The translations under genes and the position numbers were made by a program. Positions 3,758-52,421 of a DNA stretch of 64,000 nucleotides are shown here, piece after piece. The notes under the pieces are model-generated. The model ran no database searches and was not told the DNA's origin. It saw only the letters and a program-made list of their open reading frames with translations. Every line of letters starts with the position of its first letter. The first letter of the stretch is position 1. This DNA is from an uncultured Bacillales bacterium (lineage in GTDB: Bacteria > Bacillota_I > Bacilli_A > RF39 > UBA660), in contig CAMODE010000041.1 in NCBI GenBank assembly GCA_946611235.1, positions 8,316-72,315 of the forward strand, in the 5' to 3' direction.

Positions 3758-3832
3758 TTTTTCATCTCCTCCTATCATATATAATGATATCACAAATAGA
3801 TAAAAGGTGTCAATTAGTATTAATCTTTTTTT

Positions 3833-4222
3833 TTACAATTTTTGTACTATATTGTAAATATCTTCTATATAAATTATTTCTTTATTTTCTAGTATTATTT
3901 TCTTATATATAAAATCTATCTTTTTTATCTTACCTATTATGTCTAAATATTCCCCCCCGTTTTTATATTTATCATGTTTAAAATATGTTATTAAGTAAGA
4001 ATTGTCTTTATCAATTTTATTTAATGTATAATTTATTTCTTCTATTTTGTCTCTACTTAATACTTTTTTAGTATCTACTAGTCTTCCTTCTTCTAAAATA
4101 GATTCATTATATCCAGTAAGCGCAGCAAATGGCATAAATTCTTTGGCTCTACTTTCGATTGGCATCTTGGGGTGATTAGATATTGGTCTAGATAAATTAA
4201 TTATATCTTCATATTTATTCAT
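3833..4222 (-). CDS. YolD-like protein (accessory to Y-family polymerase)
   Basis: 129-aa ORF overlapping the stop of the polymerase gene by 8 nt. Contains an FMPFAALTGY motif. The gene pair polymerase + YolD-like matches B. subtilis uvrX-yolD. Confidence 0.6.
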   Translation of the reverse strand: MNKYEDIINLSRPISNHPKMPIESRAKEFMPFAALTGYNESILEEGRLVDTKKVLSRDKIEEINYTLNKIDKDNSYLITYFKHDKYKNGGEYLDIIGKIKKIDFIYKKIILENKEIIYIEDIYNIVQKL

Positions 4223-13718: not shown

Positions 13719-14993
13719 TTATTCTTCTTTTCTTTTAATTTTAGTTTTATTCTTATTAATAATATTATCAAATAATCCAGTAATAAAATGATATTTACCA
13801 TAATTAAGATTATTCTTAATAGTCTCTATTACTCTTTCATCTTTAGTAAGTTCATAATAGGCTTCTATTAAGATCGATTTAATAGTATTTTCAAAGTCTT
13901 TATTGTCGTTTTTAGAAACTTCCATATCAGTATATTCAAGCACCTCATTTATAAAATAGAATACTATATCTTCAGCAAAAGAATAATCTTCATCTAGAGT
14001 ATCTTCTTTTATATTGCCACCCATAAATAAATAATCTGAAATACTTTCTTTACGATATAGTAAATCCATTACATACATAAGGCCATATTTTGCAACAGTA
14101 AGGCTATCATATATACTATCATATTCTTTTTTATTAACTTTTCTATCAATAATATCAATGACTCTTTTGTAATATCTTTGCTTTGATATTTCTTCTGTTT
14201 TATCTTTTTTTTCAATATTTGAAGATAAATATTTAGCAAAAGCAAGTTCTCTGTTAGTATCAACAATGAATAAAGCTCTAAGAAAAGGGTTGCTTTGTAA
14301 ATCATTATTTATTTTCCTACTCTTTATTTTAAGTTTTAATAATTTAAGAGCATCACAGCTAAGTGAATCTGCCTTATTCATAAAAAGATGACATAGGTCT
14401 TTATACTCGCGAATAGAGCAGTTTTCTTTTAAATAATAAGTAAGAAGATTTCTTTTAAAAATATTTATCTTTAAATTAGATAATATTTTTTCACTAGATA
14501 TATTCTCTTTTGAGAGTTCTTGTTTGGCAAGTTCCTCATAATCATCCTCAATATTTTCTTCTAAACTCATTATATTATCATATAATTCTTCATTAACATT
14601 AATTCCAATTATTTTAAAAATTGCTGTTTTTCTATTTTTAACAAATTCATTTACCTGTTCTATTATATATTCAAAGTATTGAATTACTTCACTATTAATC
14701 AAGTCATCCAATTTATCCATTTCAATATTAGGATTTAAAATAATAAAATTCTCAAACTGAAAAATATCATTAGAATATTTATTAATCATTGCATTTAATT
14801 CATAACTAAACGTTTCATAATCTCTATCTTCACTTAGATCTTTTCCTTCTAATAGTACCTCTTCTTGTTCTTCAGGTAATTCCGCTAGAAACTCACTAAT
14901 TACTTTTGATAATTGTTCTAACGATATTATAGTTTTCTTTTCTCTTTCTTTTAATAATTTCATTAATATTAATGTTATATATGATATAGGCAT
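13719..14993 (-). CDS. Hypothetical acidic 424-aa protein
   Basis: Long ORF, Glu/Asp/Lys-rich and probably helical; no motif recognised. Confidence 0.55.
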   Translation of the reverse strand: MPISYITLILMKLLKEREKKTIISLEQLSKVISEFLAELPEEQEEVLLEGKDLSEDRDYETFSYELNAMINKYSNDIFQFENFIILNPNIEMDKLDDLINSEVIQYFEYIIEQVNEFVKNRKTAIFKIIGINVNEELYDNIMSLEENIEDDYEELAKQELSKENISSEKILSNLKINIFKRNLLTYYLKENCSIREYKDLCHLFMNKADSLSCDALKLLKLKIKSRKINNDLQSNPFLRALFIVDTNRELAFAKYLSSNIEKKDKTEEISKQRYYKRVIDIIDRKVNKKEYDSIYDSLTVAKYGLMYVMDLLYRKESISDYLFMGGNIKEDTLDEDYSFAEDIVFYFINEVLEYTDMEVSKNDNKDFENTIKSILIEAYYELTKDERVIETIKNNLNYGKYHFITGLFDNIINKNKTKIKRKEE

Positions 14994-15063
14994 AATCCAT
15001 CTCCTCTAATGATATATATAATATCATAATTAAAACTCAATATCAAGAAAAAAACATATATTT

Positions 15064-17100
15064 CTATATGTCTTTCTCATAATCACAACTAGTACATTTA
15101 ATCTTATCTTTCTTTTTAGTAAGAATGCCATTGCAGTTAGGGCAAGATTCTTCTATTGGTTCATCCCAAGTAGCAAAGTCACATTTAGGATAATTACTAC
15201 ATCCATAAAAGATTTTACCCCTCTTTGTCTTTCTTTCAATTATTTTACCATCACATTTAGGACAAGGCATTATTTCTTTTACTTCTTTTTTCTCCGTAGG
15301 TTTAATATACTTACATTCTGGATAATTTGAGCAGGCAACAAACTTACCATATTTACTTTGTTTTACTACTAAAGGATTACCACAGTTAGGACAAGATTCT
15401 CCTGTCTCTTCTGGTGCTTTCTTTTCCATTTCACTAAAGGCTACTTTTACTTTAGGTTCAAAATCTTTATAGAATAGTTCAAGTAATTTATTCCATTCTA
15501 AATCACCATCTGCTATCTTGTCAAGATCATCTTCCATCTTCTTCGTATATTCAACATTAATAATATCTTTAAAGAACTCTTGTAATTTATCCGTCGTTTC
15601 TATTCCAATCTCTGTAGGTACAAATTTCTTCTCTACTAGTTTTACATAGGCTCTCTCTATTATCGTTTCAATCGTTTTAGCATATGTTGAAGGCCTTCCT
15701 ATTCCTAATTCTTCCATTTCTTTAATTAGTTTACTTTCTGTATATCTACTAGGAGGTTTAGTTGTATGCATAGTATAATCAATATTATTAGATACAATTA
15801 TATTACTTTTATAAGTAGAAAAATCAGGAAGAATTTTATCTTCAGAATCCTCATACATACTATATACTTTTAAGTATCCATCAAAGATAAGTATTTGACC
15901 AGTAGTCTTAAACTGATAATTATTATTATCTAGTATTACAGTTGTAGCTTCTACTTTAGCATCTTTCATTAATGATGCTAAAGCTCTATAATAAATAATT
16001 CGATATAATTTATATTCATCATTCGTTAAATACTCTTTAATTTTTTCCGGTTCTCTATTAATCGAAGTTGGTCTAATAGCTTCATGAGCATCTTGAACAT
16101 TTTCTGTTTTATTACTTGTTTTAACATAACCGACATACTCACTACCATAGTTTTCTTTAATATAACCATATGTACTTTTAATAAACTCATCAGAAAGTCT
16201 TACTGAGTCCGTTCTCATATATGATATAAGACCTACTGTCTCTGTACCAATATTAATACCTTCATATAACTTTTGAGCTATGCTCATTGTTTTCTTCGAA
16301 CTAAAGCCTAACTTACTAGAAGCTTCCTGCTGAAGAGTACTTGTTGTAAAAGGTGCTTTACTTTTCTTAGCTTTTTCTTTCTTATCAACACTTTCTATTT
16401 TAAAAGCATTAGATAGTTTACTAAGTATATCTTTAGCTTCATTTTCTTTTTTTATTTCTATTTTTTTATGATTATAAGTATCTAATTTAGCATCAAAGTC
16501 ATTAAAATGAGCATCTATTTCATAATACTCTTCTGGTATAAAAGCCTCTATTTCTCTTTCTCTATCGACAATTAGTTTTAAAGCAACACTTTGTACTCTA
16601 CCCGCAGACTTACCACCGGTTTTGGATTGCATAAGTTTACTAAGTCTAAAACCAATTATTCTATCAAGTATTCTTCTTGTTTCTTGCGACTTAACTAAAT
16701 TATCATCAATCATTCTTGCCTTATCAAAAGAATTAAGTACTGCATTTTTTGTTATTTCATTAAATACTATTCTTTTATAATTATTATCATTAAGTCCTAA
16801 TGTATCATATAAATGCCAACTAATAGCTTCTCCCTCCCTATCGGGGTCGGTAGCTAAATATACAAAACTAGCATTCTTAACATCATTTTTTAATTCTTTA
16901 ACTAATTTATTCTTACCTTTAATAATTTTATAATCAGGTTTAAATCCATTATCAATATCTACTCCAAAGCCAAATTTTCCCGAAGTAGATAAATCTCTTA
17001 TATGTCCAACCGAAGAAACTACTTTGTAGTCACTTCCTAAATATTTTTCAATTGTCTTACTTTTATGTGGTGACTCCACGATAACTAATTTTTTATTCAT
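15064..17100 (-). CDS. topA: DNA topoisomerase I
   Basis: TOPRIM VIVESPHKSKTI and DPDREGE, the active-site region YMRTDS, and C-terminal CxxC zinc ribbons. GAAAGGAAGG RBS before ATG at 17100. Confidence 0.95.
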   Translation of the reverse strand: MNKKLVIVESPHKSKTIEKYLGSDYKVVSSVGHIRDLSTSGKFGFGVDIDNGFKPDYKIIKGKNKLVKELKNDVKNASFVYLATDPDREGEAISWHLYDTLGLNDNNYKRIVFNEITKNAVLNSFDKARMIDDNLVKSQETRRILDRIIGFRLSKLMQSKTGGKSAGRVQSVALKLIVDREREIEAFIPEEYYEIDAHFNDFDAKLDTYNHKKIEIKKENEAKDILSKLSNAFKIESVDKKEKAKKSKAPFTTSTLQQEASSKLGFSSKKTMSIAQKLYEGINIGTETVGLISYMRTDSVRLSDEFIKSTYGYIKENYGSEYVGYVKTSNKTENVQDAHEAIRPTSINREPEKIKEYLTNDEYKLYRIIYYRALASLMKDAKVEATTVILDNNNYQFKTTGQILIFDGYLKVYSMYEDSEDKILPDFSTYKSNIIVSNNIDYTMHTTKPPSRYTESKLIKEMEELGIGRPSTYAKTIETIIERAYVKLVEKKFVPTEIGIETTDKLQEFFKDIINVEYTKKMEDDLDKIADGDLEWNKLLELFYKDFEPKVKVAFSEMEKKAPEETGESCPNCGNPLVVKQSKYGKFVACSNYPECKYIKPTEKKEVKEIMPCPKCDGKIIERKTKRGKIFYGCSNYPKCDFATWDEPIEESCPNCNGILTKKKDKIKCTSCDYEKDI

Positions 17101-29383: not shown

Positions 29384-30622
29384 CTAGTAAGTAATAACTT
29401 TTTTATCAGTACTATTTAATCTTTCACTATCAGACTCTTTAATAACAATTGTATCAATATTACCATCAGATATATACTTATTTTTCTCTAAATTTTTGAA
29501 AACCATTTCAATGTCAAATTCTTTACCATTATTATCATAAGCTCTACATCTTTTTAAAAATGTCATATCAAATTCTTTGTCAAATGGAGAAACTTCAGGT
29601 TCCCATCCTACTCTTAAAGCAGCCTTAGTATCATATGTCTTACCATTATAATTACTTTCTAGGACATATTTATAATTTTCGTGAGTTTTAACATAAGGGC
29701 TACCAAAAGGAAGTGCAATAATATTTACATACTCTCCTGGAATGATTTTCTCTAGTTCATCATATACATAAGCAATTTCCTTCTGAACCCGATCCCCGCT
29801 AGACTTCTTTATATCCAAATGAGTTTGGGTATGGTTGCCAACATCATATCCATTATCTATAAGAAAATGTAATATTTTTTCATTGTATTCAGTTTGATTA
29901 AAAATACCACCATTAACAAAAAATGTAGCAGTCGCTTTACTATCAGGATGTTTCTTTTTAAAAGATTCTAATATACCAACAGCACTATTTTCATCTATAA
30001 TAATATTACCATTATCATCTAACCCTGTTACTCTGATATTATCTTCATTACCATCATCAAAAGTAAGAATTATTGGACTTTTTCCATAATCAACATCAAC
30101 TATCCCATTAATATAATCATCTAATCTTATCATCTGATAACCCTTTTCATAATAGAACTCCAAGTCTTCTCTAAAAGCATCGGGAGTTCTATTATAGCCA
30201 TCTTTATCAACATTACCCCCAATAGTACCAGTACTACTACTAGTTCTTTCTCTAATACCATGATACATCATAATTGGAACTTTACCAAGTTCATTAATAT
30301 TATCACTAGCAAGTTTATCTTTATCAAGTTTTCCCAAAGAAACAATAATATCTAAAGTTAATCCATCAGTAATCTCTTCACCTTCCTTAATGCTTTGAGA
30401 AATAATTCCATCTTTTCCAATTTCATCATGATATTCATATTTAGTATTAATAGTCATTTTATATTTCTCTTTTAATATATTAGCTTCTTCGATAGTTCCT
30501 AGTTTAGGCATATATACTTTCTTATCAAAATCTATATTATTTAAAATAATAATAAAAATAATAATCGCAGGTACCAATAAAAATAATAAACATATCTTTC
30601 TATTAATATTTTTCTTACTCAT
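29384..30622 (-). CDS. Polysaccharide deacetylase (NodB homology) with N-terminal TM and PASTA-like domain
   Basis: Deacetylase motifs ILTFDDGNEDN and NHTQTH. N-terminal MPKLGTIEEANILK...GIISQSIKEGEEITDGLTLDIIVSLG resembles PASTA. Confidence 0.8.
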   Translation of the reverse strand: MSKKNINRKICLLFLLVPAIIIFIIILNNIDFDKKVYMPKLGTIEEANILKEKYKMTINTKYEYHDEIGKDGIISQSIKEGEEITDGLTLDIIVSLGKLDKDKLASDNINELGKVPIMMYHGIRERTSSSTGTIGGNVDKDGYNRTPDAFREDLEFYYEKGYQMIRLDDYINGIVDVDYGKSPIILTFDDGNEDNIRVTGLDDNGNIIIDENSAVGILESFKKKHPDSKATATFFVNGGIFNQTEYNEKILHFLIDNGYDVGNHTQTHLDIKKSSGDRVQKEIAYVYDELEKIIPGEYVNIIALPFGSPYVKTHENYKYVLESNYNGKTYDTKAALRVGWEPEVSPFDKEFDMTFLKRCRAYDNNGKEFDIEMVFKNLEKNKYISDGNIDTIVIKESDSERLNSTDKKVITY

Positions 30623-31534: not shown

Positions 31535-31960
31535 CTATTCTCTTTCGAAATGAATTAGTGAATATAATTCATTACCATCTAAATTATATTTCATCGTTAG
31601 CCTATTCTCTTCTAAAATAATTTCTTCTTCTCCAGAAAGGTATAAATCATTATCTTCTATTACCATATTATTATTAGCAATAGAATATTTAACTTTTTTA
31701 CATATATCTTTATTATCCACTATATAACATATTTTTATTTGAGACTTAGAAATAACAACATATTTATCTTCAATAATTTCAACATATGAAGTAATAAGAC
31801 CATTATCAAAAACTTCTGAAGACTTGGCAACCCATTTTCCATAAATATAATTGTCACCATTACTATCTTTTCCAATTAATACAACTACAGCAACAAAAAT
31901 AATCAAAACTATTAAGGTAGCTACAATAGTAAATAATATTATTTTCTTTTTCTTATTCAT
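31535..31960 (-). CDS. Hypothetical membrane-anchored protein
   Basis: MNKKKKIILFTIVATLIVLIIFVAVVVLIG signal anchor. GGAG RBS before ATG at 31960. Immediately downstream of the giant pilin gene. Confidence 0.5.
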   Translation of the reverse strand: MNKKKKIILFTIVATLIVLIIFVAVVVLIGKDSNGDNYIYGKWVAKSSEVFDNGLITSYVEIIEDKYVVISKSQIKICYIVDNKDICKKVKYSIANNNMVIEDNDLYLSGEEEIILEENRLTMKYNLDGNELYSLIHFERE

Positions 31961-31977
31961 ATATAGCATCTCCAAAA

Positions 31978-34900
31978 TCAATTACACATTTCCCAATCGG
32001 AATTATTTTCACTCTTTTTATATTGACATTGTCCATTATAACATCTTCCTTGCTTATTACCAAAAACACATTGATTATCATTACTACATGCTCCACACTG
32101 ACCAACAGGTGAAGTACCTCCAGAACTAGAAGAGCAATTTGGTTTTGAAGAAACTAAATAGTCTCCACTTACATAACAGTTAGAACTAGCATTATAATAC
32201 CAATTTCCTGTATAAGACTTTACTAAGCCAGGCAAATAGGTTCCACATCCAAAATATGAAATAGTTGAATGACTGGTTGAAGGACCACTTCGACATTTTA
32301 TGCCACTAACAGCATTAACATAGCTTCCTACAGCAGTATTTGCGTAATATTTAAAATACTTTATATCATCAGCGCAATTACCAACATTATCACATATCGT
32401 GGCTTTATATTTTCGATATCCACCATTATCGACTAGATTATCAAAAACATAATTGTTTCCGCTAGAAACGCCACTCAAAGCATATCCGCCAGCAGTAGGA
32501 AATGCTTCATTTAAAGATTCAGAACTATGATTATTAAAAAAGTATCTACCAGTAGAATTTATTCCACTAAATTGATCTGAAGCAATCCATCTAAGTGTTG
32601 GTTTAAAAGTAAACCATTTCAAATCATCACTTGGAGCCGAACTATAATAAGTACTGCTAGCAACTGTATTTCCATTTAGCAATTGAAAACTAACGCTTGG
32701 AGGTACTTTATCTATTTTAAAGAACACTTCACTATCAGTACAATTTCCTACATTATCACATATATTAAATTTAACATAACGATATCCACTAGATGACATC
32801 TTAACACTAAATTTTCCATTTGAATCACCAGTTTTTGATGCTGTAGAATTAATATCGGTAGATAATGTGCTTAAACCCGTTTTATTATATGAAATATTAT
32901 CTTTTAAATTTATATTAATTCCACTTAAAGAGTCAATAGTATCCCATTCAAGATAAAGAGAATTATTAATCCACTTTAAATCATCTGATGAACTAAGTCC
33001 ATAGATATTACTATTTAAATTAACAATTTCACCATCCGATCCGTTTTTCCTAACATTAACAGTGAATGTTGGTTTGATAAAATCGAGCCTCAAAAACACA
33101 TTACTTTCCGCACAATTTCCAGCTTCATCACAAGTTTCAAACTTAACATGTCTATATCCACTTGAACTAACATCAATAGCAAATGGTTCTTTAATTTGAT
33201 CACCATTGTAAACAATTCGAGTTAATGGATTAGAATTTAAAGAATTTAAATTAATTTTATTGTAAGAAAAGGCCTGTTCTTTAATTCCACTTCCATTTTC
33301 CACCGAAGTCCATTCGAGTTTAGGGACATAATTAATCCATTTTGGTACCGAAGCTTGCATCAAACTATATTCATTGCTTGAAGGGGATACTACATTATTG
33401 TTATGCTTCATGCCAAATGAAATAGTAGGTTTTGTTTTATCTATTCTAATATATGTAGAACTTTCTTCCGAACAATTACCAGCATTATCACATGCTCTCA
33501 CATAAACTGGCTCATTTCTTTCCGCAGAAAAAGGAGTTGTTACAAAATCTTCAACAGAAGAATTAGCATATGTATGCCATGAATGGCCTTTGTAACGATA
33601 TTGATAATATGCAATTCCTGATAAATTATCTGCACTATGTAAAGTTAGGGAAAAACTATAATTAACCCACTCTTCATTAGAAGGATTATCAATAATTGGA
33701 GCACTAGGAGGAGTCGAATCTAATTTAGATATATATTGCGTTTCTCCACAATAAGTTGACCCAATTTTAGTTCTAGCAGTATAAGTATGTATTCCTTCAG
33801 CTGGAAAAATAGGATTACTATAAGTTTGATAGTCACCATCATCTATCTTATATTCATAACTTGGATTTCCAACATTTTCACTAGTTATTGTTAAAGTATG
33901 CCCACTATTATGCCATTTTTCAGAAGCAATTCCATCACTCGGAGTAATAATTGGTGATAAACAGCTACTACTTTCCCAATTAACAGAAAGCACCACAGTA
34001 CAATTATCCTCTTTAGCATTACAGAAAGAATCCGAATTATAATTATCTACCTGATTATATGTTTTACCAAGACATTCCCCAGAAATACATTTCCATACAC
34101 TTCCAGTAGAAACAGTAAACCCAGGATTAGTAATTTTCATATATTCCCCATTGTTATATTTAGGCAAATCTTTTTCTTCATTATATAAAATGCTAAAGAA
34201 ACTATCTGTATATGTGTTACCATTGTCTTTTGATCTAGAAATTATTCCATTACTAGAATTAATTTCCCATAAATACTTAGTTCCATCATCCGAAATTGTT
34301 GAACTTTTAATCGAAGCCCCTTCCCCAGCATTAAACTTAATAATAACCTTATATTTAGCCTTCCACATAGCATATAAAGTCACACTATCTGATGATGTTA
34401 AGTTATATACAGTATCTTTATTTTTATACGTTTTTCCAGATAAATCACTCTTAGTATTCCAACCTATAAACTTATAACCATCTTTACTAAATCCATTTTC
34501 ACTTAAAGTACAATTTTTACCTCTAACACATGTCGTACTAGGAGTGCTACCATCTACTCCATTTGTATTAGCATTATAATCAATTGTATAATTATCTACT
34601 TGCCACTGAGCATAAAGAGTAATTGTATCTTCACTATAAGAATTAATAGCGTCTCCTGCCAAATAATTCATACCACTCCCATCTGGTTCTGTATTCCAAG
34701 AAACAAAGCGATATCCTACTCTTTTAGGCTTCAAAGGGCTAACATATGTTACCATACAATTTTCTTCAGTACATATTTCAGCCATCTGATCAATTGGAAC
34801 ATTTTGATTATCACCATCTGAATTATATTCATAATGAATAGTAAAAAACTTAATATCACATAAATCTTTCAATTCAGTAGCATCATCTTCCAAAAAATCA

Positions 34901-35253
34901 ATACTATTAATTGTATATTTAGTTGCATCCCTAACAACAGTTATGATTAAAGAATCACCATATTTTTCACTAGTAGCTTCTTTTTTTAATAACCCAACAT
35001 TCTTAAGTCTTTGAATAGTAGTACAAAAATATTGACTATTATTAAGTTCTTTCCAATCATAACTATTAGCTTCACTAGAATATATTCTAGCAGCTTCCAT
35101 TATACTTGTTTCATTTAAAACAACCGTTTTTTCTTTGGCACTCTTATATGCATTAATAATACCATATCCAGATAATCCTAAAACTAAAGAAGTAACCACT
35201 ATTACTGCAAGTAATTCAACTAATGTAAAACCTTTCCTATTTAATTTCTTCAT
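31978..35253 (-). CDS. Giant modular type IV pilin-like surface protein (1091 aa)
   Basis: MKKLNRKG/FTLVELLAVIVV class III signal. Then 2 Listeria-Bacteroides (Flg_new) repeats (GYRFVSWNT...TLYAQW, GYKFIGWNT...TLYAMW) and 4-5 Ig-like modules ending CDxxGNC / IDKxxP. Ends with an SH3b-like segment and a 6-Cys tail. Confidence 0.85.
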   Translation of the reverse strand: MKKLNRKGFTLVELLAVIVVTSLVLGLSGYGIINAYKSAKEKTVVLNETSIMEAARIYSSEANSYDWKELNNSQYFCTTIQRLKNVGLLKKEATSEKYGDSLIITVVRDATKYTINSIDFLEDDATELKDLCDIKFFTIHYEYNSDGDNQNVPIDQMAEICTEENCMVTYVSPLKPKRVGYRFVSWNTEPDGSGMNYLAGDAINSYSEDTITLYAQWQVDNYTIDYNANTNGVDGSTPSTTCVRGKNCTLSENGFSKDGYKFIGWNTKSDLSGKTYKNKDTVYNLTSSDSVTLYAMWKAKYKVIIKFNAGEGASIKSSTISDDGTKYLWEINSSNGIISRSKDNGNTYTDSFFSILYNEEKDLPKYNNGEYMKITNPGFTVSTGSVWKCISGECLGKTYNQVDNYNSDSFCNAKEDNCTVVLSVNWESSSCLSPIITPSDGIASEKWHNSGHTLTITSENVGNPSYEYKIDDGDYQTYSNPIFPAEGIHTYTARTKIGSTYCGETQYISKLDSTPPSAPIIDNPSNEEWVNYSFSLTLHSADNLSGIAYYQYRYKGHSWHTYANSSVEDFVTTPFSAERNEPVYVRACDNAGNCSEESSTYIRIDKTKPTISFGMKHNNNVVSPSSNEYSLMQASVPKWINYVPKLEWTSVENGSGIKEQAFSYNKINLNSLNSNPLTRIVYNGDQIKEPFAIDVSSSGYRHVKFETCDEAGNCAESNVFLRLDFIKPTFTVNVRKNGSDGEIVNLNSNIYGLSSSDDLKWINNSLYLEWDTIDSLSGININLKDNISYNKTGLSTLSTDINSTASKTGDSNGKFSVKMSSSGYRYVKFNICDNVGNCTDSEVFFKIDKVPPSVSFQLLNGNTVASSTYYSSAPSDDLKWFTFKPTLRWIASDQFSGINSTGRYFFNNHSSESLNEAFPTAGGYALSGVSSGNNYVFDNLVDNGGYRKYKATICDNVGNCADDIKYFKYYANTAVGSYVNAVSGIKCRSGPSTSHSTISYFGCGTYLPGLVKSYTGNWYYNASSNCYVSGDYLVSSKPNCSSSSGGTSPVGQCGACSNDNQCVFGNKQGRCYNGQCQYKKSENNSDWEMCN

Positions 35254-41554: not shown

Positions 41555-42430
41555 GTGAAAAATCACATAATTAGATTATACGAGATAATTATGAAATTAA
41601 TTGTAAATAAAGAAGATACTCTATATAACTATTTAAGAAACAACCTAGAAGGTAAATCAAAGAATAATATTAAGTCACTACTCAAAAGAGAACTTATAAG
41701 TGTTAATGATAAAGTAGTAACAAAGTACGACTATAACCTTCTTATAGGAGACACTATTACTATAAGTAATGGTTATAATTATAATGAGGAAACCATAAAA
41801 ATAATCTATGAAGATGATAATATCATTGTAGTAAATAAACCCACTAAAATATTAACAATAAGTAATAAAAACGAAAAAGAAAATACTTTATACCGAAAAG
41901 TATCTGACTATTTAAAAAAAGAAAAGAAAAAAGTATTTGTAATACATAGGTTAGACTTTGATACATCCGGAGTTATTATGTTTGCTAAGAATCAAAAAGT
42001 CCAAAAATTATACCAAGATAATTGGAATAATTTAGCTAAAAAAAGAGAATATATTGCCATTGTCGAAGGAGTAACTCCTCCTAAAGGGCATATCGAGTCA
42101 TACTTAAAAGAATCTAAAATCCTAGAAGTATACTCCTCTAAAAATAAAGATGGACTATTTTCAATAACTGACTATGAAACTATTAAACAAAGTAATAAAT
42201 ACTCGATGGTAAAGGTATTAATATCTACTGGTCGAAGAAATCAAATAAGATGTCATATGTCTGATATTAATCATCCAATAGTTGGAGACTCTCGTTATAA
42301 AAGTAAAGCAAATCCCTTAGGTAGACTTGCCCTTCATGCCCACATACTAGAAATTGAAGATCCACTCACTCACAAGTTATTTACTTTTACTAGTATAATA
42401 CCTGAAGAATTTAATAATATAATAAAATAG
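41555..42430 (+). CDS. RluA-family pseudouridine synthase with S4-like N-terminal domain
   Basis: HRLDFDTSGVIMFAKN catalytic motif and GRRNQIRCH. GTG start after an AGGAG RBS. Confidence 0.88.
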   Translation: MKNHIIRLYEIIMKLIVNKEDTLYNYLRNNLEGKSKNNIKSLLKRELISVNDKVVTKYDYNLLIGDTITISNGYNYNEETIKIIYEDDNIIVVNKPTKILTISNKNEKENTLYRKVSDYLKKEKKKVFVIHRLDFDTSGVIMFAKNQKVQKLYQDNWNNLAKKREYIAIVEGVTPPKGHIESYLKESKILEVYSSKNKDGLFSITDYETIKQSNKYSMVKVLISTGRRNQIRCHMSDINHPIVGDSRYKSKANPLGRLALHAHILEIEDPLTHKLFTFTSIIPEEFNNIIK

Positions 42431-42462
42431 GATATCAAATCGATACCTTATTTTTTATTTAT
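42368..42462. repeat. Direct repeat copy 1 (rluA-family 3' end + terminator)
   Basis: About 90% identical to 43972-44064. Both encode ..THKLFTFTSIIPEEFNNIIK-stop. Confidence 0.9.
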
Positions 42463-43783
42463 TGTATTCTACACTTTTTACTACCCATTCACCCTTTTTA
42501 GTAGCACCAGTTCTTTCAATCAATCCCATATCTACAAGTATTTTAATATTTCTTTGTATTGTTCTAATATTAACATCTAATATTCTTGATAAAGCATTCT
42601 GTGTAATAGTTGGAGAATCAAGCATTAACCCTAAAATAGAATTTTGTATTTCTGTTAATTCATCTTTCTTAATATTTTCTTGCTTTCTCATTTTAAATTT
42701 ATTTTCATTAAATGGAAATGTAACTCTAATAAAGTTTGGAAAAAATTCAAACGATTTTTTATCGTAAGTTTGAAGAATTCTAATTATACCAGTACCCATT
42801 TGCTCAACCAAATCTAAATCATTAAAAACTTTCATTAGTTCTTTATTTTTAGGTAACGAATATCCTTCTAGAAATTCTTCTTTTGTAGTAGCAGGCTGAA
42901 TACCACCATTTGATGATATTACTAATCTATCAATAAACATTTCAAACTTAGGAGCATACTCATTAGACCAATCATTATGAACAATGGCATTAACCACTGC
43001 TTCTCTTACTGCTGCAAAATCATACATTTTTATTTCCTTTCTTTCAGGGTATTCAATTTTAGTAAATATCTTGTTTTCAATCTCTATCTTATTTAAAATA
43101 TTCTTTGTTGCTTTAACAATAGAGCAATTACCAAAATCTTCATTTTCAATTAATTGAGCAACATTTGTCCCTTCGTATTTACCAAATCTAATAGATATTG
43201 TATTATTATCAGCAAGCAAATAAGCATTATAGTTATATTTACCATCATCAGTATATAAGTCTAATTGCTTTAAAAAATTATTATTAATAATAAATCCTTT
43301 TTCTTCGTAATATATTTTTAATTGACTAAAAGTTAAATCTTGCTTAGGTGATACTATATTTCTTAACGAAGTTCTTGTTCTTTTATTAACTCTATTATTA
43401 ATCATATCATGAGGCATACTTTGTATTGAACTACCAACTCTAATGAAGCAACTATCAGGTGTCATTCCCATACCTTTAATATAGTACGGGTCATCACTAC
43501 CACGGGCAATAATCACTTTAATATATTTTTTATTGTTTTCCTCTAATATTACAACATCATATAGTCCTAATGTGGATGGCATAATATTATCTTTTATTCT
43601 ATCTTTAATAGTCCTTTGTAATAAATCAATATTACCATTCACACCAACAATGTCCCCGTTATCATTAACACCAATATAGATATTGCCTCCATTGGTATTC
43701 AAAAATGAAATAACTTCTTCTTCGAACTTATCCGTTAGTTTAACTTTAAATTCATTTCTTACATCTTCAATTGCATTTATCAT
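42455..43783 (-). CDS. AlbA_2 (Schlafen-like) domain protein with HATPase_c_4-like region and C-terminal wHTH
   Basis: N-terminal EEEVISFLNTNGGNIYIGVNDNGDIVGV (AlbA_2), central REAVVNAIVHNDW, and C-terminal ILDVNIRTIQRNIKILVDMGLIERTG. Confidence 0.8.
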   Translation of the reverse strand: MINAIEDVRNEFKVKLTDKFEEEVISFLNTNGGNIYIGVNDNGDIVGVNGNIDLLQRTIKDRIKDNIMPSTLGLYDVVILEENNKKYIKVIIARGSDDPYYIKGMGMTPDSCFIRVGSSIQSMPHDMINNRVNKRTRTSLRNIVSPKQDLTFSQLKIYYEEKGFIINNNFLKQLDLYTDDGKYNYNAYLLADNNTISIRFGKYEGTNVAQLIENEDFGNCSIVKATKNILNKIEIENKIFTKIEYPERKEIKMYDFAAVREAVVNAIVHNDWSNEYAPKFEMFIDRLVISSNGGIQPATTKEEFLEGYSLPKNKELMKVFNDLDLVEQMGTGIIRILQTYDKKSFEFFPNFIRVTFPFNENKFKMRKQENIKKDELTEIQNSILGLMLDSPTITQNALSRILDVNIRTIQRNIKILVDMGLIERTGATKKGEWVVKSVEYNK

Positions 43784-43809
43784 TCTAACCTCCTGATTCT
43801 TGTAATCTA

Positions 43810-43867
43810 ATTATACCATGTCGTAAGAAATGTCGCAAGAAATGTCATAAGAAATGTCGTAAGAAAT
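43810..43867 (-). promoter_or_regulatory. Promoter embedded in a 12-bp tandem repeat array (TTCTTACGACAT x ~4.3)
   Basis: Plus-strand units ATGTCGTAAGAA / ATGTCGCAAGAA / ATGTCATAAGAA / ATGTCGTAAGAA at 43818-43865. On the minus strand TTGCGA - 17 nt - TATAAT (43810-43815), then AGGAGG and the ATG. Confidence 0.55.
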
Positions 43868-43971
43868 AACAAAATAATTAAATTAATTTATATTTCTATA
43901 TATTTTTTGTTTTTGTAAACTTTAGATATCTATACCTTAAACTAGTAATAAAGAAAGTAATGGTTAGAATT

Positions 43972-44064
43972 ACTCATAAACTATTTACTTTTACCAGTAT
44001 AATACCTGAAGAATTTAATAATATAATAAAATAAGATATCATTGATACCTTATTTTTTATTTAT
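43972..44064. repeat. Direct repeat copy 2 (orphan rluA-family 3' end + terminator)
   Basis: Encodes ITHKLFTFTSIIPEEFNNIIK-stop with synonymous differences from copy 1. No upstream gene body. Confidence 0.9.
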
Positions 44065-44310
44065 CATATTCATCATATCTTTAACTACAAGCATTGCTTC
44101 ATTAAAGACACTCTTATCTTCAATCTCTTCTAGATAATCATAACCATCTTTATCTTTATTAATATAAGCAATATTAAGAGAATCATCATCTCTATCAAAA
44201 GCATTAATCGTAAATACAGCAATTTCTCTATCACTATTATCTAGTTTAAATATTGATAAAATATTACCTAACTTAAATTCATTCTTTTCATTAACAATAT
44301 CAAATTCCAT
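44050..44310 (-). CDS. DUF1292 (UPF0473/YrzB-like) protein
   Basis: 86 aa, acidic, with an EIAVFTI...DDSLNIAYINKDKDGYDYLEEIEDKSVFNEA pattern. Confidence 0.65.
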   Translation of the reverse strand: MEFDIVNEKNEFKLGNILSIFKLDNSDREIAVFTINAFDRDDDSLNIAYINKDKDGYDYLEEIEDKSVFNEAMLVVKDMMNMINKK

Positions 44311-44681: not shown

Positions 44682-46730
44682 TCACCTCCACTTAATAATT
44701 ACAATTCCAAGTATAACACTAAATATCATTATTGCAATAACAAATAATATAATATATATAATACTTATAAAGCCTCTCCTTTTATTTGTTTTAGTAAAAA
44801 TATCAAATATTTTAGAGACATTTGACGTATTTAATGATTCCAATTCTTCTCGCCCTTGTAATTCTTTAATTTCCTCTAGAGTATGATAGTTAGATTTATA
44901 AAAAATTTCTTTGCACTCCTTTGGTAATGTTACTCCTTTTAGAGTTTTTAGCTTCCCTAAATATAAAGTTTCTCCTATGATTTCGGGTAATATTAAACCA
45001 TAAGCTGTTCTTAACCCATTTAAAGCTAAATCCTTTCCTATTTTATGAGGTAATATCAAGCCTTCGGCCGTTGTTAATCCATTTAAGTATAAAAATTCTA
45101 TATTTGGAGGTAAGATTAAGCCTTCGGCTGTTGTTAATCCATTTAAGTATAAAATTTTTATATTTGGAGGTAAGATTAAGCCTTCGGCCGTTGTTAATCC
45201 ATTTAAATATAAAATTTTTATATTTGAAGGTAAGTTAAGTTCGTTTGCCTGTTTGAGATTTTCTAGACTTACAGTACCATATATAATTTCAGGAAATTTT
45301 AAGCCATTTAATTTAGTTATTTTTAGTGATAAGTCTCCTCTTAACCATTTCGATGGAAGTTTCCAATTACCAATATGCTTTAATTTTGAATCATCAATAT
45401 CTCCAATATAGTAAATCAAATCTCTTTTTAAATCTTCTTCAGTTATTCCTAATTCTTCTTCATTTATATTATATATTTTTGCTAAATCTTCTTTAATATT
45501 TCTTTTATCAAGTATTTCTTTTATTCTCGGATCTTTTTGATATCCAAAACCTATTATATTTTCATCTATTTCATATAAAAATCTTAGTTCTTCAATAGTT
45601 AACTCTCTATCTTTATAATTATCATATATTTCCGTAAGTTTTTTCATATCACTTACTTTCTTTTTATATAAAGATGCATCTGGAAATTCTTTCAATTTTT
45701 CTTCAAGTACTTTTTCCATATTAGATTCGATATTTTGACTTTGAGCCACTCCTCTTATTTCTCCAATTGAATTCTTATTCATTCTAATTGCTATTCTAGG
45801 AATTTTATATTCACCATCTTCATTCTTTGTATAAAAGACATAAAAATCTCCACCTTTATATGATTTACCTCCACATATTTGACTTTTAGCGGTTTCTCTA
45901 CTACCAGCAGTACACCATCCTGTATTATAACCTTGTAAATCATTATATAATTTTAAATATTCTGGTTCCTTGCCATCTTTTAATTTTCTTTCAGCTTCTT
46001 CTTCAGTTTCATAATTATACTTAACCCATATACCGTTATTGCTTACTACTCTTATCGTTTTTTTATTAGCTAGTAATGTTCCGTATAATTTTGGGAAACT
46101 ACCAGATGAAACCAATTTTTTTATTTCATCATCAGTAATGTCTTCCTTATTAAATACTTCTTGTATGTATTCTACGCATTTACCTAATAACTCTGAATCT
46201 AAACTTACAAAAGGATTAACATTAGATTCACTTCTTCTCCCATAGCCATCTTTAGCTTTATTTAAATTACCTATACTAAGCATTCCTTGAAAGGCCCATA
46301 CTTTTGCCCACATAGGAAGATAATCAGAGTCTCTACTTAGAAAATAATCAAGCCATGAATCTAAACTATCTTTTTGTTCTCTAATTATTGTATTAATATG
46401 TTCTTCTTTGGTTTTTTTATCTTTATCACTAGTAGGATTGACTAAATTATGATGTCCATGTCCTTCATCAAGATACTGCTTAGACAATGTTTCAAAATAA
46501 CTATCAGGTATATTTTCTTTTTTAATAATATATCTATCATAATATAGTTCTTTTAATCTTCTAATATTTTCTTCTTTAGATAATACTTTATTTTGTACTC
46601 TATCTAATTTATCTAGATATTTATTAAGTCTTTCTTTTTTAGTTTTTAAATCAGGTTTATCATCAAAGCTAATAATTTCAGAATCAATTAATATATCATA
46701 TAATTTACTTAAAAACTTATCCTCACTCAT
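44682..46730 (-). CDS. Tail-anchored protein with leucine-rich repeats (20-aa period)
   Basis: LNGLTTAEGLILPPNIKILY x3 plus degenerate flanking copies. C-terminal TM RRGFISIIYIILFVIAIMIFSVILGIVIIKWR. GGTGGA RBS before ATG at 46730. Confidence 0.7.
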   Translation of the reverse strand: MSEDKFLSKLYDILIDSEIISFDDKPDLKTKKERLNKYLDKLDRVQNKVLSKEENIRRLKELYYDRYIIKKENIPDSYFETLSKQYLDEGHGHHNLVNPTSDKDKKTKEEHINTIIREQKDSLDSWLDYFLSRDSDYLPMWAKVWAFQGMLSIGNLNKAKDGYGRRSESNVNPFVSLDSELLGKCVEYIQEVFNKEDITDDEIKKLVSSGSFPKLYGTLLANKKTIRVVSNNGIWVKYNYETEEEAERKLKDGKEPEYLKLYNDLQGYNTGWCTAGSRETAKSQICGGKSYKGGDFYVFYTKNEDGEYKIPRIAIRMNKNSIGEIRGVAQSQNIESNMEKVLEEKLKEFPDASLYKKKVSDMKKLTEIYDNYKDRELTIEELRFLYEIDENIIGFGYQKDPRIKEILDKRNIKEDLAKIYNINEEELGITEEDLKRDLIYYIGDIDDSKLKHIGNWKLPSKWLRGDLSLKITKLNGLKFPEIIYGTVSLENLKQANELNLPSNIKILYLNGLTTAEGLILPPNIKILYLNGLTTAEGLILPPNIEFLYLNGLTTAEGLILPHKIGKDLALNGLRTAYGLILPEIIGETLYLGKLKTLKGVTLPKECKEIFYKSNYHTLEEIKELQGREELESLNTSNVSKIFDIFTKTNKRRGFISIIYIILFVIAIMIFSVILGIVIIKWR
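45058..45237. repeat. 60-bp tandem repeat x3 (near-identical) encoding the LRR units
   Basis: CCTTCGGC(C/T)GTTGTTAATCCATTTAA recurs at 45061, 45121 and 45181, with only a few substitutions per unit. Confidence 0.9.
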
Positions 46731-46738
46731 ATATCCAC

Positions 46739-49072
46739 CTACTTCCATTTAAAGTTTCTTATTTCTTCCGTATCAATACCATATTCTTTAATATATTCTT
46801 CATGATATTTTAATTTATCTTTCATAAGTTTAATTATTTTTTTACCTTCTTCTTTTTCTGCTATATCCAAATGTTTAATAATATCAATAACAATATGATA
46901 TCTATCTATTTCATTTTTAACTCGCATATCAAAAGGTGTTGTAATTGTACCCTCTTCCATATATCCATGAACTGAAATATTTTTATTAAATCTCTCATAA
47001 GTAAATTCATGAATAAGTGTTGGATAACCATGATAATTAAATATTATAGGTTTATCCTTGGTAAACAAATTATTATATTCCATATTAGTAAGTCCATGAG
47101 GATGTCTTGTACTAGGCTCAAGTTTCATCAAATCAACAATATTAATAAATCTAACTCTTACACTAGGAAGATATTCTCTAAGTAGTTGTACCGCTGCCAT
47201 ATTCTCGAGTGTTGGTGCTTCACCAATAGACACTAGTACTACATCTACTCCCTTTTCATCATTAGATGCAAACTCCCATTTACTAATACCTTTAGCACAG
47301 TGCTCTTTTGCCTCTTCAATTGTAAGCCACTGTGGTCTCATATGTTTAGAGGCTACGATTACATTAATATAATTCTTTGTCTTAATAACATGATCAAAAC
47401 ATGATAAAAGACAGTTACTATCTGGTGGTAAATATACTCTTACAATATCAGCTTTCTTATTAGCTAAATGATCAATAAAACCAGGATCTTGATGTGTATA
47501 TCCATTATGATCTTGTTGCCATACATTCGAAGTAAGGACATAATTGAGTGATGCAATATCTTTTCTCCAATTAATTTCATTACACATTTTAAGCCATTTA
47601 GCATGCTGACTAGCCATTGAATCCACTATTCGAATAAAAGCCTCATAACTAGCAAAGAATCCATGTCTACCAGTTAATAAGTATCCTTCGAGCCATCCTT
47701 CACAAGTATGTTCACTAAGGTATGAATCCATTATTCTACCATCACAAGATAAATATTCATCAGTACTCTTTTTATTTAAATACCAACTCCTATTATCTAT
47801 ATCAAAAACATGATTAAGTCTATTACTCATTGTTTCATCAGGACCAAATACTCTAAAATTATCTGGGTTATTCTTAATAATATCCCTAATAAATTCTCCT
47901 AGTACTCTCATATCTTCTTTCTCGATCATACCCTTTTCTTTAACATCGACAGCATATTTATCAATACTAGGTACTTTAAGTTCTTTAAGAAGAACACCTC
48001 CATTAGCATTCGGATTATCTCCCATAGTACTATAAGGAACTAACTTTTTAATATATTCTTTAATCTTACCATTATCATCAAATAATTCTTCAGGTTTATA
48101 ACTCTTAAGCCATCTTTCTAATAATTTTAAATCATCTTCTGTATTCAAATTAAATGGTACTTGATGACTTCTAAAAGTACCTTCTATTTTCTTATTATCA
48201 TATTCCTTAGGACCGGTCCATCCTTTCGGAGTTCTAAGTATAATCATCGGATAAAAAACTCTCTTAACTATACCCTTAACTCTAGCATCATACCATATCT
48301 TTTTAATATCACTAACTACTTTATCTAAAGTACTAGCCATCTTCTTATGCATTTCTATCGGATCAGAACCCTCTAGATAATATACCTTATAGCCAAGTCC
48401 ATAGAATAAAGAACCTAGTTCTTCTTTACTAATTCTCGATAATACTGTAGGATTACTAATCTTATAACCATTTAAATGAAGAATAGGAAGAACAATTCCA
48501 TCTCTTTTAGGATTAATAAATTTATTCGAATTTAAACTTGTAAGAAGTGGCCCCGTCTCAGCTTCCCCATCTCCTATTACAGTAGCAGCTATTAAAGTAG
48601 GATTATCCAGTATAGCTCCATAAGCATGACTTACACTATAACCAAGTTCTCCCCCCTCATTAATACTACCAGGAGTCTCTGGAGCAGCATGCGAAGGTAT
48701 TCCCCCAGGAAAAGAAAACTGTTTAAATAATTTTTTAAGTCCATCTATATCTTCTGTTACTTCAGGATAATACTTTGTATAAGTACCCTCAATATAAGTA
48801 TTAGCAACAACTGAATTACCACCATGACCAGGTCCAGATATATAAATCATATTAAGATCATTATTCTTAATAATTCTATTTAAATGCGTATATATAAAAT
48901 TCTGACCAGGTACGGTACCCCAATGACCCACTATTTTCTTCTTAACATGTTCCCATTTTAAAGGTTCTTTTAAAAGAGGATTATCAAGTAAATATAACTG
49001 CCCAACAGATAAATAATTAGCCAGTCTAAAATAAGCATCTAATTCCTTAATCTCTTTATTACTAATCTTCAT
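46739..49072 (-). CDS. xfp: Phosphoketolase (xylulose-5-P/fructose-6-P)
   Basis: [33 protein letters not shown] and EGGELGY motifs. 777 aa. Confidence 0.93.
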
Positions 49073-50423: not shown

Positions 50424-50441
50424 CTATCTTACTCTTTTAAT

Positions 50442-52343
50442 TTATCTTACCAGTTTTCTTAATTTGTTTTTATTTACATTCTGTAACATTACTCTATCAC
50501 ATTCTCCGTTATTAATAAGATTAGAAATAATCGTATCCATAGTATAGTGAAAATCTTCAGGATAAAATGGTGTTCTATTTTTATATATCAATCTAATGGT
50601 ATCTTGCTCTTTTATTGCTAAACTCATATTACAACAATAATAATATGCCTGTCGTGACTTCGTAAGTTCTTTACTAATATAAGGCATAAGTAATTCTGAT
50701 AATTTATATCTACTTTTTAATATCCACGAATTTTCATAATCATCAAATATAATTATATCATTAGTTTTATTCGAACTCAGTAACCTTAATTTGTCATAAT
50801 TTTCTATTTTTCTAAGCGAACCAGGAAGAATCAAAGCCTTATCTTTTAGAATTCTTCTAAGTTTGCTCATATTAAAAATATTATTATTAAATTGTAATTC
50901 TTCAATTCCGTCAGGTAATATATATTCCTTATTTAATCCCAACTTTTCTTCTCTATCTCTCATAATTTTGTATAATCTATATTGAGGATTATAACCTTTT
51001 ACAAGACCAAAACCTAAATATGTCAATTCATATATTGTCTTTAATGAAACATAAGTACTAAGTTTTAAAAGAGATTCATTATTCATAACATGAGGGTCAT
51101 TAGACATATTAATAAAATAATTACTTTTAACCCTTGCATTAGAGAGCATTTCACTAAATCCGTTTTCTCTATCAAAAGCAAGTATTAACTTTAGTCTTTC
51201 ATTTTCATACCAATCACACTCTATCATAACATTAGGTATTTTCTTAAAATTAGTTATTGCTTCATTCTTTTCTCCAAAAATATTATTAAATATCTCATTA
51301 TTACCATTTATGATATCATTATATTTTCTCTCTACTATTTGCTTATAATATTCATATCCCCTATCACTCTCGTTAATAAGAGTTTCTTCTAAACTACCAA
51401 TATCACAAGTAAGTATCTTAAATTTAGTTTCATATAAGTCATTAAACGTTTCTTTGGTAATAATATTTCTTCCATATTTATAGTAGAAATAGTATTTAGT
51501 CTCTATTGACTCTATTTGTTTAAGTAAACCGTCTTTATTTTTTTTATTATAATCAAATTGTTTAATATCATCTAATTCTTTAATAATTAAATTTACATCA
51601 TCTTTATGATTAAATACATATTTTTCCAATTCTATTTCTAAATAAGCAATTATTCCTATATCCTCCATTGTACTATCTGATACATCATCTAGTACTTCAG
51701 GTATATATATTCTAGCATCATTAAATACTTCTTTCTTATTCTTTTGTATTGTTATATTAATCATATATTCATCACAAATACTATTATTTAATATATTATT
51801 AAATCTAGTCATACATAGTTTAGTTCTCATTGAAGCAGAATACAATGAAGTTCTATTAACTACTATACTACTAATAAAAGAATCCATTTCATTAGATATT
51901 AATCTCTTTTTTTTTGGTAATAATAATTTTTCTTTTCTTATCTCATTTAAGGCAATTAATCTTAATACCATTTCATCATATATATCACTTATCTTAGTAT
52001 ATAGTATATACATCTTTAACATTTCTATTTTTAAATTATAATATAAATCATTATTATCTATTTTATTAATAGTAGAATTCCTAAGTAAATGATTTAATAG
52101 TAACTGCTGATAAATAATATAATCACCAAATAATTCTTTTTTAGATATATCAAGTAAATATTTATTACTCTTAAGTTTACTTAAATACTCTTCCTTATAA
52201 CTATTTAATAATTCTATCTTATCTTCAGACAAATTATTTCTATTAGGAATTTCATAGTATGAGACTACTTCTTTATTCTTATTATTCCTTTTAAATATTT
52301 TATTAATAAAATTAGATATAAATTTAGGCATCCTTATATTCAT
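50442..52343 (-). CDS. Hypothetical 633-aa protein
   Basis: Long ORF with no motif recognised. Part of an accessory segment between the FemAB-family gene and smc. Confidence 0.55.
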   Translation of the reverse strand: MNIRMPKFISNFINKIFKRNNKNKEVVSYYEIPNRNNLSEDKIELLNSYKEEYLSKLKSNKYLLDISKKELFGDYIIYQQLLLNHLLRNSTINKIDNNDLYYNLKIEMLKMYILYTKISDIYDEMVLRLIALNEIRKEKLLLPKKKRLISNEMDSFISSIVVNRTSLYSASMRTKLCMTRFNNILNNSICDEYMINITIQKNKKEVFNDARIYIPEVLDDVSDSTMEDIGIIAYLEIELEKYVFNHKDDVNLIIKELDDIKQFDYNKKNKDGLLKQIESIETKYYFYYKYGRNIITKETFNDLYETKFKILTCDIGSLEETLINESDRGYEYYKQIVERKYNDIINGNNEIFNNIFGEKNEAITNFKKIPNVMIECDWYENERLKLILAFDRENGFSEMLSNARVKSNYFINMSNDPHVMNNESLLKLSTYVSLKTIYELTYLGFGLVKGYNPQYRLYKIMRDREEKLGLNKEYILPDGIEELQFNNNIFNMSKLRRILKDKALILPGSLRKIENYDKLRLLSSNKTNDIIIFDDYENSWILKSRYKLSELLMPYISKELTKSRQAYYYCCNMSLAIKEQDTIRLIYKNRTPFYPEDFHYTMDTIISNLINNGECDRVMLQNVNKNKLRKLVR

Positions 52344-52421
52344 TATATCCCCCTCATGTGCCTAATATCATACAATAGTTTCATTATTTAGTCAAGAAAA
52401 AATAATTAGTATGTTGACTAA

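Follow-up and report, generated by a model that had tools for sequence, protein, structure and literature searches.

How a gene that brings no recombinase with it came to lie between two conserved genes, and between two copies of their common junction, is the question raised by a segment of the genome under study (G000), a bin of 1.27 Mb in 62 contigs with 26.5% G+C and an estimated completeness of 92%. The window, that is the whole stretch of 64,000 nt that was analyzed, corresponds to positions 8316-72315 of contig C41 of this genome. In it, the gene of an RluA-family pseudouridine synthase (rluA) and a convergent conserved gene encoding a protein of 86 amino acids (aa) are separated by an insert of 1,502 nt, which harbors a single gene with an N-terminal Schlafen-type domain and is flanked by direct repeats of about 100 nt. 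The original prediction took this arrangement for the footprint of the insertion of a minimal integrase-free cassette, and this has held: the site is empty in the closest strains and filled in another one, the target is single in relatives, the two repeats are a mosaic of alleles and the insert holds no recombinase gene. As to how the cassette moved, it probably spread without any recombinase, with its duplicated target serving as homology arms.

The rluA gene (41555-42430, + strand, with a likely ATG start at 41591) has an intact open reading frame of 291 or 279 aa (PF00849, 1.3e-28; TIGR00005, 5e-50). Orthologues can be found in 41 of the 41 relatives searched, and an exact-protein look-up of RluA returned no record. 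The PF00849 reading frame ends in the first repeat copy (42368-42469, 102 nt), which provides its final 21 codons and completes the gene, as had been proposed. The second copy (43972-44071, 100 nt) carries an orphan rluA tail, which continues into the genuine end of the 86-aa gene (44050-44310, - strand), the native right-hand neighbor of rluA in relatives, which adjoins it in L004, L065, L120, L066, L008, L023 and L024. The label DUF1292 formerly given to this neighbor has to be dropped, since the protein matches no Pfam family at E<=0.001 and DUF1292 (PF06949) not even at E<=10.

Each repeat copy has three parts, namely the last 21 rluA codons with their stop, an AT-rich hairpin with flanking A- and T-runs, and about 22 nt corresponding to the last 7 codons of the 86-aa gene, which are the true tail of that gene in copy 2 and a homologue of it in copy 1. 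In another reading frame, the far end of copy 1 also provides the cassette gene with its final 5 codons and its stop. The copies are 90% identical, with a single 2-nt gap in the hairpin loop, and are thus 7 nt longer than the repeats of about 95 bp and about 90% identity first described; they are the only two in the whole 1.27-Mb assembly. Both translate as THKLFTFTSIIPEEFNNIIK-stop, and the synonymous character ascribed to their differences is complete, all five differences across the 63 coding bases being silent (CAC/CAT, AAG/AAA, TTA/CTA, ACT/ACC, TAG/TAA).

The GATATC..GATACC hairpin with its T-run, described earlier as a terminator, does fold on both strands in both copies (-6.7 to -11.3 kcal/mol, z -2.7 to -5.9). 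Hairpin 1 (42424-42454) has the appearance of an AT-rich two-way terminator (AAAAUAGGAUAUC / GAUACCUUAUUUU), with -7.2 kcal/mol on the + strand, -7.9 kcal/mol on the - strand and z about -2.7, and hairpin 2 (44028-44056), which has a shorter loop (ATT), reaches -6.7 (+) and -11.3 (-) kcal/mol with z values of -3.6 and -5.9. A simple terminator scan called no terminator at either hairpin because they contain fewer than three G-C pairs. The third core-like word reported at 43924-43939 (AGATATCTATACCTTA) is present inside the filler that forms part of the cassette, and showed no fold on the folding test. The word GATATC-N0-6-[GT]ATACCTTA occurs three times in the 1.27 Mb, each time at this locus.

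The insertion had been staked on finding empty sites in related strains, and such sites were found. In the closest species representative (G021, locus L004; RluA 89% identical), the gene order is sirA-orf297-rluA><86aa-orf118, and the convergent rluA and 86-aa genes are about 20 nt apart with nothing between them. In L065, a metagenome contig from a close strain (RluA 96%, SirA 99%), 17 nt separate the two stops, and the sites of L120 and L066 are likewise empty. L128, another metagenome contig from a close strain, is 97.3-98.7% identical to L065 over 9.8 kb and differs here by the insert: its site is filled by a 98%-identical cassette gene with the same duplication. One segment of L065 (6764-6867) aligns with both L128 copies and with both copies of the window. 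An orphan rluA tail or a second hairpin copy was sought in about 85 further rluA loci, taken from relatives in the genus and from metagenomes, and only palindromic self-matches were obtained; the site thus does not generally carry the duplication.

Compared with the sequences on either side of it, the cassette is much younger. G000 and L128 are 87% identical in orf297, 90-92% in rluA and 86% in orf118, whereas they are 98.4% identical in the cassette gene (21 of 1314 positions differ), 98.6% in the promoter and 100% in the filler. The near-identical tract starts in the loop of hairpin 1 and stops in that of hairpin 2. Considering values of 98.4-100% for the cassette against 86-93% for the flanks, it must have moved between lineages already about 10% diverged, and into the same site. 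A separate observation on L128 is a frameshift in an A-run at about 6740-6743 (rluA codon ~163), which splits its rluA and represents either a true pseudogene or an assembly error.

The alleles of the two repeat copies indicate where the exchange occurred. On its left side, copy 1 of G000 bears the native allele, consisting of CAC AAG TTA (private to the rluA gene of G000), ACT, TAG and the loop AAATC, which is also the loop beside the 86-aa gene in L064, a contig of the Logan assembly SRR27755829 (k=31) from a strain 97% identical on the side of the 86-aa gene. On its right side, where it abuts the cassette, copy 1 bears the cassette-linked allele TTGTATTC, common with copy 1 of L128. Copy 2 is the mirror image, with the cassette-linked allele on its left (ACC, TAA) and the native allele TCATATTC on its right, as in L064. 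The ACC marker can be found elsewhere only in both copies of L128, and all empty sites have ACT. Both switches between native and cassette-linked alleles fall within one block of 21 nt, GATACCTTATTTTTTATTTAT, which corresponds to the right arm of the hairpin and its T-run. A single reciprocal crossover between a single junction and a circle made of the cassette and one hybrid junction predicts exactly that; the circle so predicted has a left part of the copy-2 type and a right part of the copy-1 type, as looping-out between the repeats of a donor gives. A linear donor could also have recombined by two independent crossovers, but these would need to coincide. There is also a polarity, four of the five silent differences lying on the working copy and one on the orphan. 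In-place decay of a self-made duplicate was rejected on this ground and on that of the ACC of the cassette-linked allele borne by the orphan. The two copies of L128 differ from each other at 2 nt only, which fits either a birth of the duplication in the L128 lineage or a later conversion.

The recombinase-free route held here to be the probable one can be described as follows. A unit of 1.5 kb, made of a 5'-trimmed copy of a widespread stand-alone gene for a Schlafen-GHKL-helix-turn-helix (HTH) protein, its proximal promoter and about 100 nt of filler, was inserted in the terminator that separates the convergent rluA and 86-aa genes, duplicating about 102 nt of the target, with no recombinase gene involved in cis. 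The first duplication may have arisen from break repair at the palindromic terminator with template switching. The two target copies would then act as portable homology arms: recombination between them could release a circle composed of the cassette and a single hybrid junction copy, a linear piece with both copies being an alternative donor form, and either form could recombine with the single junction of another strain, provided that host homologous recombination and DNA uptake are at hand. G000 would have received the cassette from an L128-like lineage by an exchange within the 21 nt that make up the right hairpin arm with its T-run; an exchange at that place would keep the native rluA tail in service and make the imported tail the orphan. 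Here the original prediction, which invoked the replacement 3' end carried by integrative elements, can be refined: the working rluA tail (left part of copy 1) is native, the orphan tail is the one that came with the cassette, and no replacement is needed because the crossover lies beyond the rluA stop.

Several observations weigh against this route. In L128, the left part of copy 1 has the cassette-linked ACC together with ATAGTA, a pattern that no simple single crossover into an L065-type site gives and that requires either an origin of the duplication in the L128 lineage or a gene conversion or double crossover. A left exchange point of L128 upstream of the repeat, which would have demonstrated an ordinary import by double crossover, was considered and discarded, the lone extra single-nucleotide difference (42353) lying within the background difference between L128 and L065. 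The mosaic depends on about 10 informative sites, and the native right-hand allele comes from one 97% identical strain (L064) alone. The mapped exchange points all coincide with the hairpin, and the cassette contains a third core-like word; a site-specific enzyme would predict this as well. Finally, ComEC is present and DprA was not found in the 92%-complete genome, so that natural competence is unproven.

Between site-specific and homology-driven placement, which the original prediction left side by side, the data decide for neither, and the balance favors a route needing no recombinase. The site-specific alternative, in which the cassette is a non-autonomous element, the attachment site is the hairpin GATATC-loop-GATACC, and a tyrosine or serine recombinase is encoded elsewhere in the cell or on a helper, is unlikely and deserves consideration first. 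It accounts for the exchange points of copy 1 and copy 2 of G000 and of copy 2 of L128, which lie at the hairpin or its right arm, and for the core-like word inside the cassette, a word unique to the locus. The exchange intervals all take in the hairpin, with a width of 15-34 nt, and the other contexts of the cassette gene are devoid of such a core. In a third strain (L064), an unmatched sequence is joined exactly at the loop. Candidate enzymes can also be found in G000, where PF00589 has four matches, all on other contigs: two Xer-like recombinases, a phage-type integrase of 390 aa on C3 and a fragment. Yet no transposase, integrase or prophage gene is present in the insert, and no recombinase (PF00589) lies in it, beside it or elsewhere on its contig. 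The 102-nt duplication reaches into both genes, far more than a crossover in the loop needs; none of the ~85 other rluA loci mentioned above has an orphan tail or a second hairpin; and the hairpin region contains the longest perfectly conserved blocks beside the insert, so that homologous exchange is favored there too. The junction in L064 is in itself ambiguous: the last 31 nt of this contig, TAATCTTTGTATACTTTTTCAGCAGTCTCTC, are joined exactly at the hairpin loop (AAATCGATACC...), searches with these 31 terminal bases gave no match, and the junction could reflect either a third state of this site or, the assembly having been made at k=31, a graph tip.

Elsewhere the same module is bracketed by duplications of different sequence and length, and other inserts of G000 duplicate the tails of unrelated genes. 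On C2, a 257-nt duplication (89% identity; 14887-15143 and 15942-16197) of the 3' end of a ZIP-family transporter gene surrounds a single opposite-strand gene of 154 aa. The two ZIP tails differ at 18 silent and 7 replacement codons plus one frameshift, so that the orphan tail looks like the allele of another strain; it was found in none of 11 genus relatives. On C13, AbiEi/AbiEii lie between copies of the tail of a DUF1015-like gene (8144-8365 and 9885-9974). On C35, two genes, one of them for a 404-aa ATPase, lie between 144-nt copies of a LysM-amidase gene tail (31820-31962 and 34828-34971). A 175-aa gene on C40 lies between copies of a tRNA 3' half (74087-74191 and 75167-75271), and a 298-aa gene on C1 between copies of the uvrA terminator (29423-29470 and 30513-30561). 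These inserts have no core sequence in common, which favors a host-wide process over one site-specific enzyme.

A further possibility is that the cassette gene is itself a selfish mobile unit. The gene (42455-43783, - strand) is the sole sizeable open reading frame between the repeats and encodes 442 aa with the three domains first assigned to it, now confirmed by Pfam: SLFN_AlbA_2 (PF04326, 1.9e-17, residues 8-123), the GHKL-type ATPase domain HATPase_c_4 (PF13749, 3.6e-12, residues 279-345) and a C-terminal winged HTH (HTH_24, 2.1e-6, residues 377-423). PDB entry 3lmm matches residues 232-340. As read from the translation, the Ex4ExK nuclease motif is intact (MINAI-E6-DVRN-E11-F-K13). According to a recent survey, the Ex4(E/D)xK motif defines the active site of prokaryotic Schlafen nucleases, and the Schlafen-HisKinase-HTH architecture is their second commonest, at 19.2% (PMC13056530). 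Another report gives the name 'Schlatpase' to the same combination of domains with a C-terminal HTH (bioRxiv 10.64898/2026.05.29.728809). By its domains, that is an N-terminal SLFN_AlbA_2 with Ex4ExK, a GHKL/HATPase_c_4 domain and a short C-terminal HTH, the cassette protein can be assigned to this Slfn-HisKinase-HTH or Schlatpase class. Like other prokaryotic Schlafens it is accessory, varies between strains and lies near defense-type genes, which in the window are a CptIN-type toxin-antitoxin system, a PDC-S05/ORF6N gene and a RhuM gene. The link to defense proposed for AlbA_2/Schlafen-like proteins thus extends beyond neighborhood to published work on prokaryotic Schlafens (PMC13056530). 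Family membership predicts that the cargo is a phage-triggered tRNA-cutting nuclease; the part of the survey at hand reports no tested member of this class, and the function is here assigned from homology (PMC13056530). In PADLOC 2023, no model fits the whole protein, and weak partial matches were obtained to models associated with prokaryotic Argonautes and to CARF/HTH models.

Upstream of the gene, the promoter TTGCGA-17-TATAAT (43838-43810, - strand) is located, in agreement with the earlier description, within tandem repeats, namely four units of 12 nt, ATGTCGTAAGAA, in an operator-like array (43810-43877). The number of units varies (4 in G000, 5 in L128), and they can also be found upstream of homologues in other species; the winged HTH of the cassette protein probably binds them as the operator over its own promoter. 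The filler follows (43878-43971). It is the part identical to L128 throughout, and its origin was sought by BLAST of 105 nt against the genome and all fetched loci, with no match.

The proximal promoter and the reading frame up to the codons GEW[IV]VK (42475-43854, - strand) form a widely shared module, found at 80-89% DNA identity with unrelated flanks in about 20 other genomes. At these ~20 loci, which come from gut 'Bacilli bacterium' bins of rabbit, goat and human, DNA similarity ends just past GEW[IV]VK, before any stop codon, so that the C-terminal tails vary between loci. At the protein level, clusters with 87-98% identity number more than 120, many of them on contigs of 1.4-4 kb that often end at the module borders. 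The search for other copies in G000 recommended by the original prediction yielded two paralogues, one on C9 (90% protein and 87% DNA identity), beside genes for a KAP P-loop NTPase and an HD-domain protein, and a diverged one on C35. No relative was found in IMG/VR, and the best plasmid and phage matches reach 54% and 34% protein identity, respectively. A decayed island, as had also been suggested, is unlikely: the same minimal unit occurs in two diverged lineages, no island genes flank it, and the gene stands alone in more than 20 other contexts.

These properties are what would be expected if the Schlafen-GHKL-HTH gene product, or a break provoked by it, drove insertion with long target duplication, as has been proposed for restriction-modification (R-M) genes. 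Very many genomes harbor the module, at 80-98% identity and between unrelated flanks, often on 1.4-4 kb contigs ending at its borders; its 3' limit is identical at all loci, just before any stop codon; three copies occur in a 1.27-Mb genome; and duplications bracket it in three further contexts. The hypothesis is nevertheless improbable. The Schlafen nucleases characterized so far cut tRNA, not DNA (PMC13056530). Most contexts of the module are without flanking duplication, which is present in L130 (55 nt) and L134 (106 nt). On its 5' side the module has no fixed limit: the sequence common to other loci extends 100-250 nt farther and takes in a second cluster of 12-nt units, and there the copy of the window is trimmed. 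Unrelated cargo of G000 (AbiE, the 154-aa gene, the ATPase pair) shows a like duplication, which points to a host process, and many loci place the module in an apparent small island linked to tRNA-Gly.

A conserved word of 55 nt, GATAACTTTACTTATATTCGAAAAATTATACTCCCAAGATTGATTAAATCAACTA, abuts TGGAGC, and its opposite strand reads TTGATT-17-TATAAT. Thirteen loci from different species have this word 0.1-2.3 kb upstream of the module, and two of them have it on the other side as well: it is located at 4592-4646 in L175 (contig C9 of G000), at 3653 and 5475 in L130 and at 3713 and 6800 in L131, and is also present in L133, L136, L137, L138, L140, L145, L148, L149, L150 and L161. In five loci, a tRNA-Gly gene whose 3' end is TGGAGC is located 2-3 kb downstream, and its flank sometimes resembles the sequence beside the 55-nt word. 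The word appears to mark the end of a small island, linked to tRNA-Gly, in which the module would usually reside; the cassette of the window is devoid of the word. It matches no Rfam family, and ARAGORN finds no tRNA at the word itself. A truncated module consisting of the first 31 codons and both operator clusters can be found in L052 (contig C12 of G017, 1360-1760), with a fragment of an insertion-sequence-type transposase about 0.2 kb past the cut.

The least probable account, either a tandem duplication that arose locally at the rluA/86-aa junction, independently of the gene, with a separate later insertion between the copies, or a strain-chimeric metagenome assembly, can draw on the frequency of tandem duplications, on the nature of G000 as a bin of 62 contigs and on the location of both allele switches in short conserved blocks where assembly graphs can cross, but it is opposed by the lack of any relative with the duplication and without the gene, by an orphan tail that is nearer to the alleles of other strains than the working tail is and that bears the cassette-linked ACC, by the same structure in L128, assembled at k=141 and thus beyond the repeat length, by a separate contig of 1,733 nt (L063) that is 100% identical to G000 over both junctions, and by shared blocks (21 and 38 nt) shorter than usual final k-mers.

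Among known systems, the locus is closest to the insertion with long target duplication, which Nobusato et al. reportedly described in 2000 for restriction-modification gene complexes. To our knowledge, this phenomenon, noticed 25 years ago for R-M genes, has never been explained. As defined in a later study by Furuta, Abe and Kobayashi (2010), such cases have inserts of less than 20 kb without mobility genes, repeats of more than 30 bp and an empty site in a relative; their repeats often span a stop codon, most come from naturally competent species, and the mechanism was left open (PMC2853133). The present locus has repeats of more than 30 bp that are not multi-copy, an empty site that aligns with both of them and an insert below 20 kb without mobility genes; the repeats likewise span a gene stop and do not disrupt the target gene, and a cycle of invasion, use of the repeats and release has been proposed for both (PMC2853133). 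The cargo is different, SLFN_AlbA_2 + HATPase_c_4 + winged HTH here versus R-M genes there, and the host is a metagenome-assembled genome of small-genome Bacilli. The locus is thus a variant of insertion with long target duplication and not a member as originally defined. A further difference is that an empty strain, a 97-99% identical filled strain and a diverged second recipient are available here, which reveals secondary spread with both exchange points inside the target.

Campbell-type, that is single-crossover, integration is known mainly from laboratory suicide plasmids and prophages. It has in common with the present locus the order target-left, insert, target-right with a duplicated homologous segment, and two copies in which donor and recipient alleles form a reciprocal mosaic, the exchange having a single coordinate; here, however, the segment is only 102 nt long at about 90% identity, and the circle is hypothetical. 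The minimal mobile elements (MMEs) of Neisseria are cassettes between conserved genes that are exchanged by transformation and flanking homologous recombination. The cis-mobilizable elements (CIMEs) of Streptococcus thermophilus are att-flanked, integrase-free derivatives of integrative and conjugative elements (ICEs), and depend on a cognate integrase together with short att cores. Both resemble the present locus in occupying a site between two conserved genes with a content that varies by strain or species and with no mobility gene. MMEs, however, need no target duplication and, unlike for CIMEs, neither an ICE nor a cognate integrase is seen here.

It can tentatively be hypothesized, with rather more doubt than confidence, that long target duplication is the first step of a general recombinase-free life cycle of minimal defense cassettes in small-genome gut Bacilli. 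A break at a palindromic terminator would be repaired with a foreign gene while about 100 nt are re-copied, the copies would serve as self-made attachment sites, and a looped-out circle would, through one crossover, re-enter the corresponding site in strains with a divergence of up to about 10%. Among the genes carried in this way, stand-alone Schlafen-GHKL-HTH genes would be frequent, and at least four or five further products would be present in G000 (the ZIP-tail, AbiE, LysM-amidase-tail, tRNA-tail and uvrA-terminator inserts). Defense genes turn over fast, yet many small ones show no visible means of moving. The natural series obtained here is unusually complete, with an empty site, a 97-99% identical filled strain with a near-perfect duplication and a recipient about 10% diverged, and it yields predictions for the bench: a circle of 1.6 kb that holds a single hybrid junction should exist, recA and the hairpin should both be required, and the repeats should allow amplification. 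Long target duplication is also extended to the newly recognized prokaryotic Schlafen nucleases. Finders of islands or defense hotspots that are keyed on integrases will miss such cassettes, for which orphan gene tails provide a usable signature.

Regarding the wider neighborhood, a genus-wide defense hotspot at the rluA/86-aa gap was considered and rejected, human-gut species holding there genes of 2-3 kb for prepilin-type surface proteins, not defense genes. These genes (L068, 4943-7105; L081, 3443-6499; L083, 6946-9489) encode proteins of 720-859 aa whose N-terminus is of the prepilin type (KGYTLIELLAV) and whose C-terminal parts are variable and rich in repeats and Cys. The rluA/86-aa region is variable and not a dedicated platform for defense. 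Farther along the window, a gene for a 688-aa leucine-rich-repeat-like tail-anchored protein (44682-46748) is missing from L064, L065 and L128, where orf118 directly adjoins a phosphoketolase gene; no long duplication can be found at its junction. A 633-aa orphan gene (50427-52393) is present in the window only. L065 harbors a Fic-domain gene and a gene for a 522-aa coiled-coil protein (1644-2632 and 3379-4990), and the Fic gene is also found in L128. The neighborhood as a whole is a patchwork of single-gene gains and losses among strains that are 90-98% identical.

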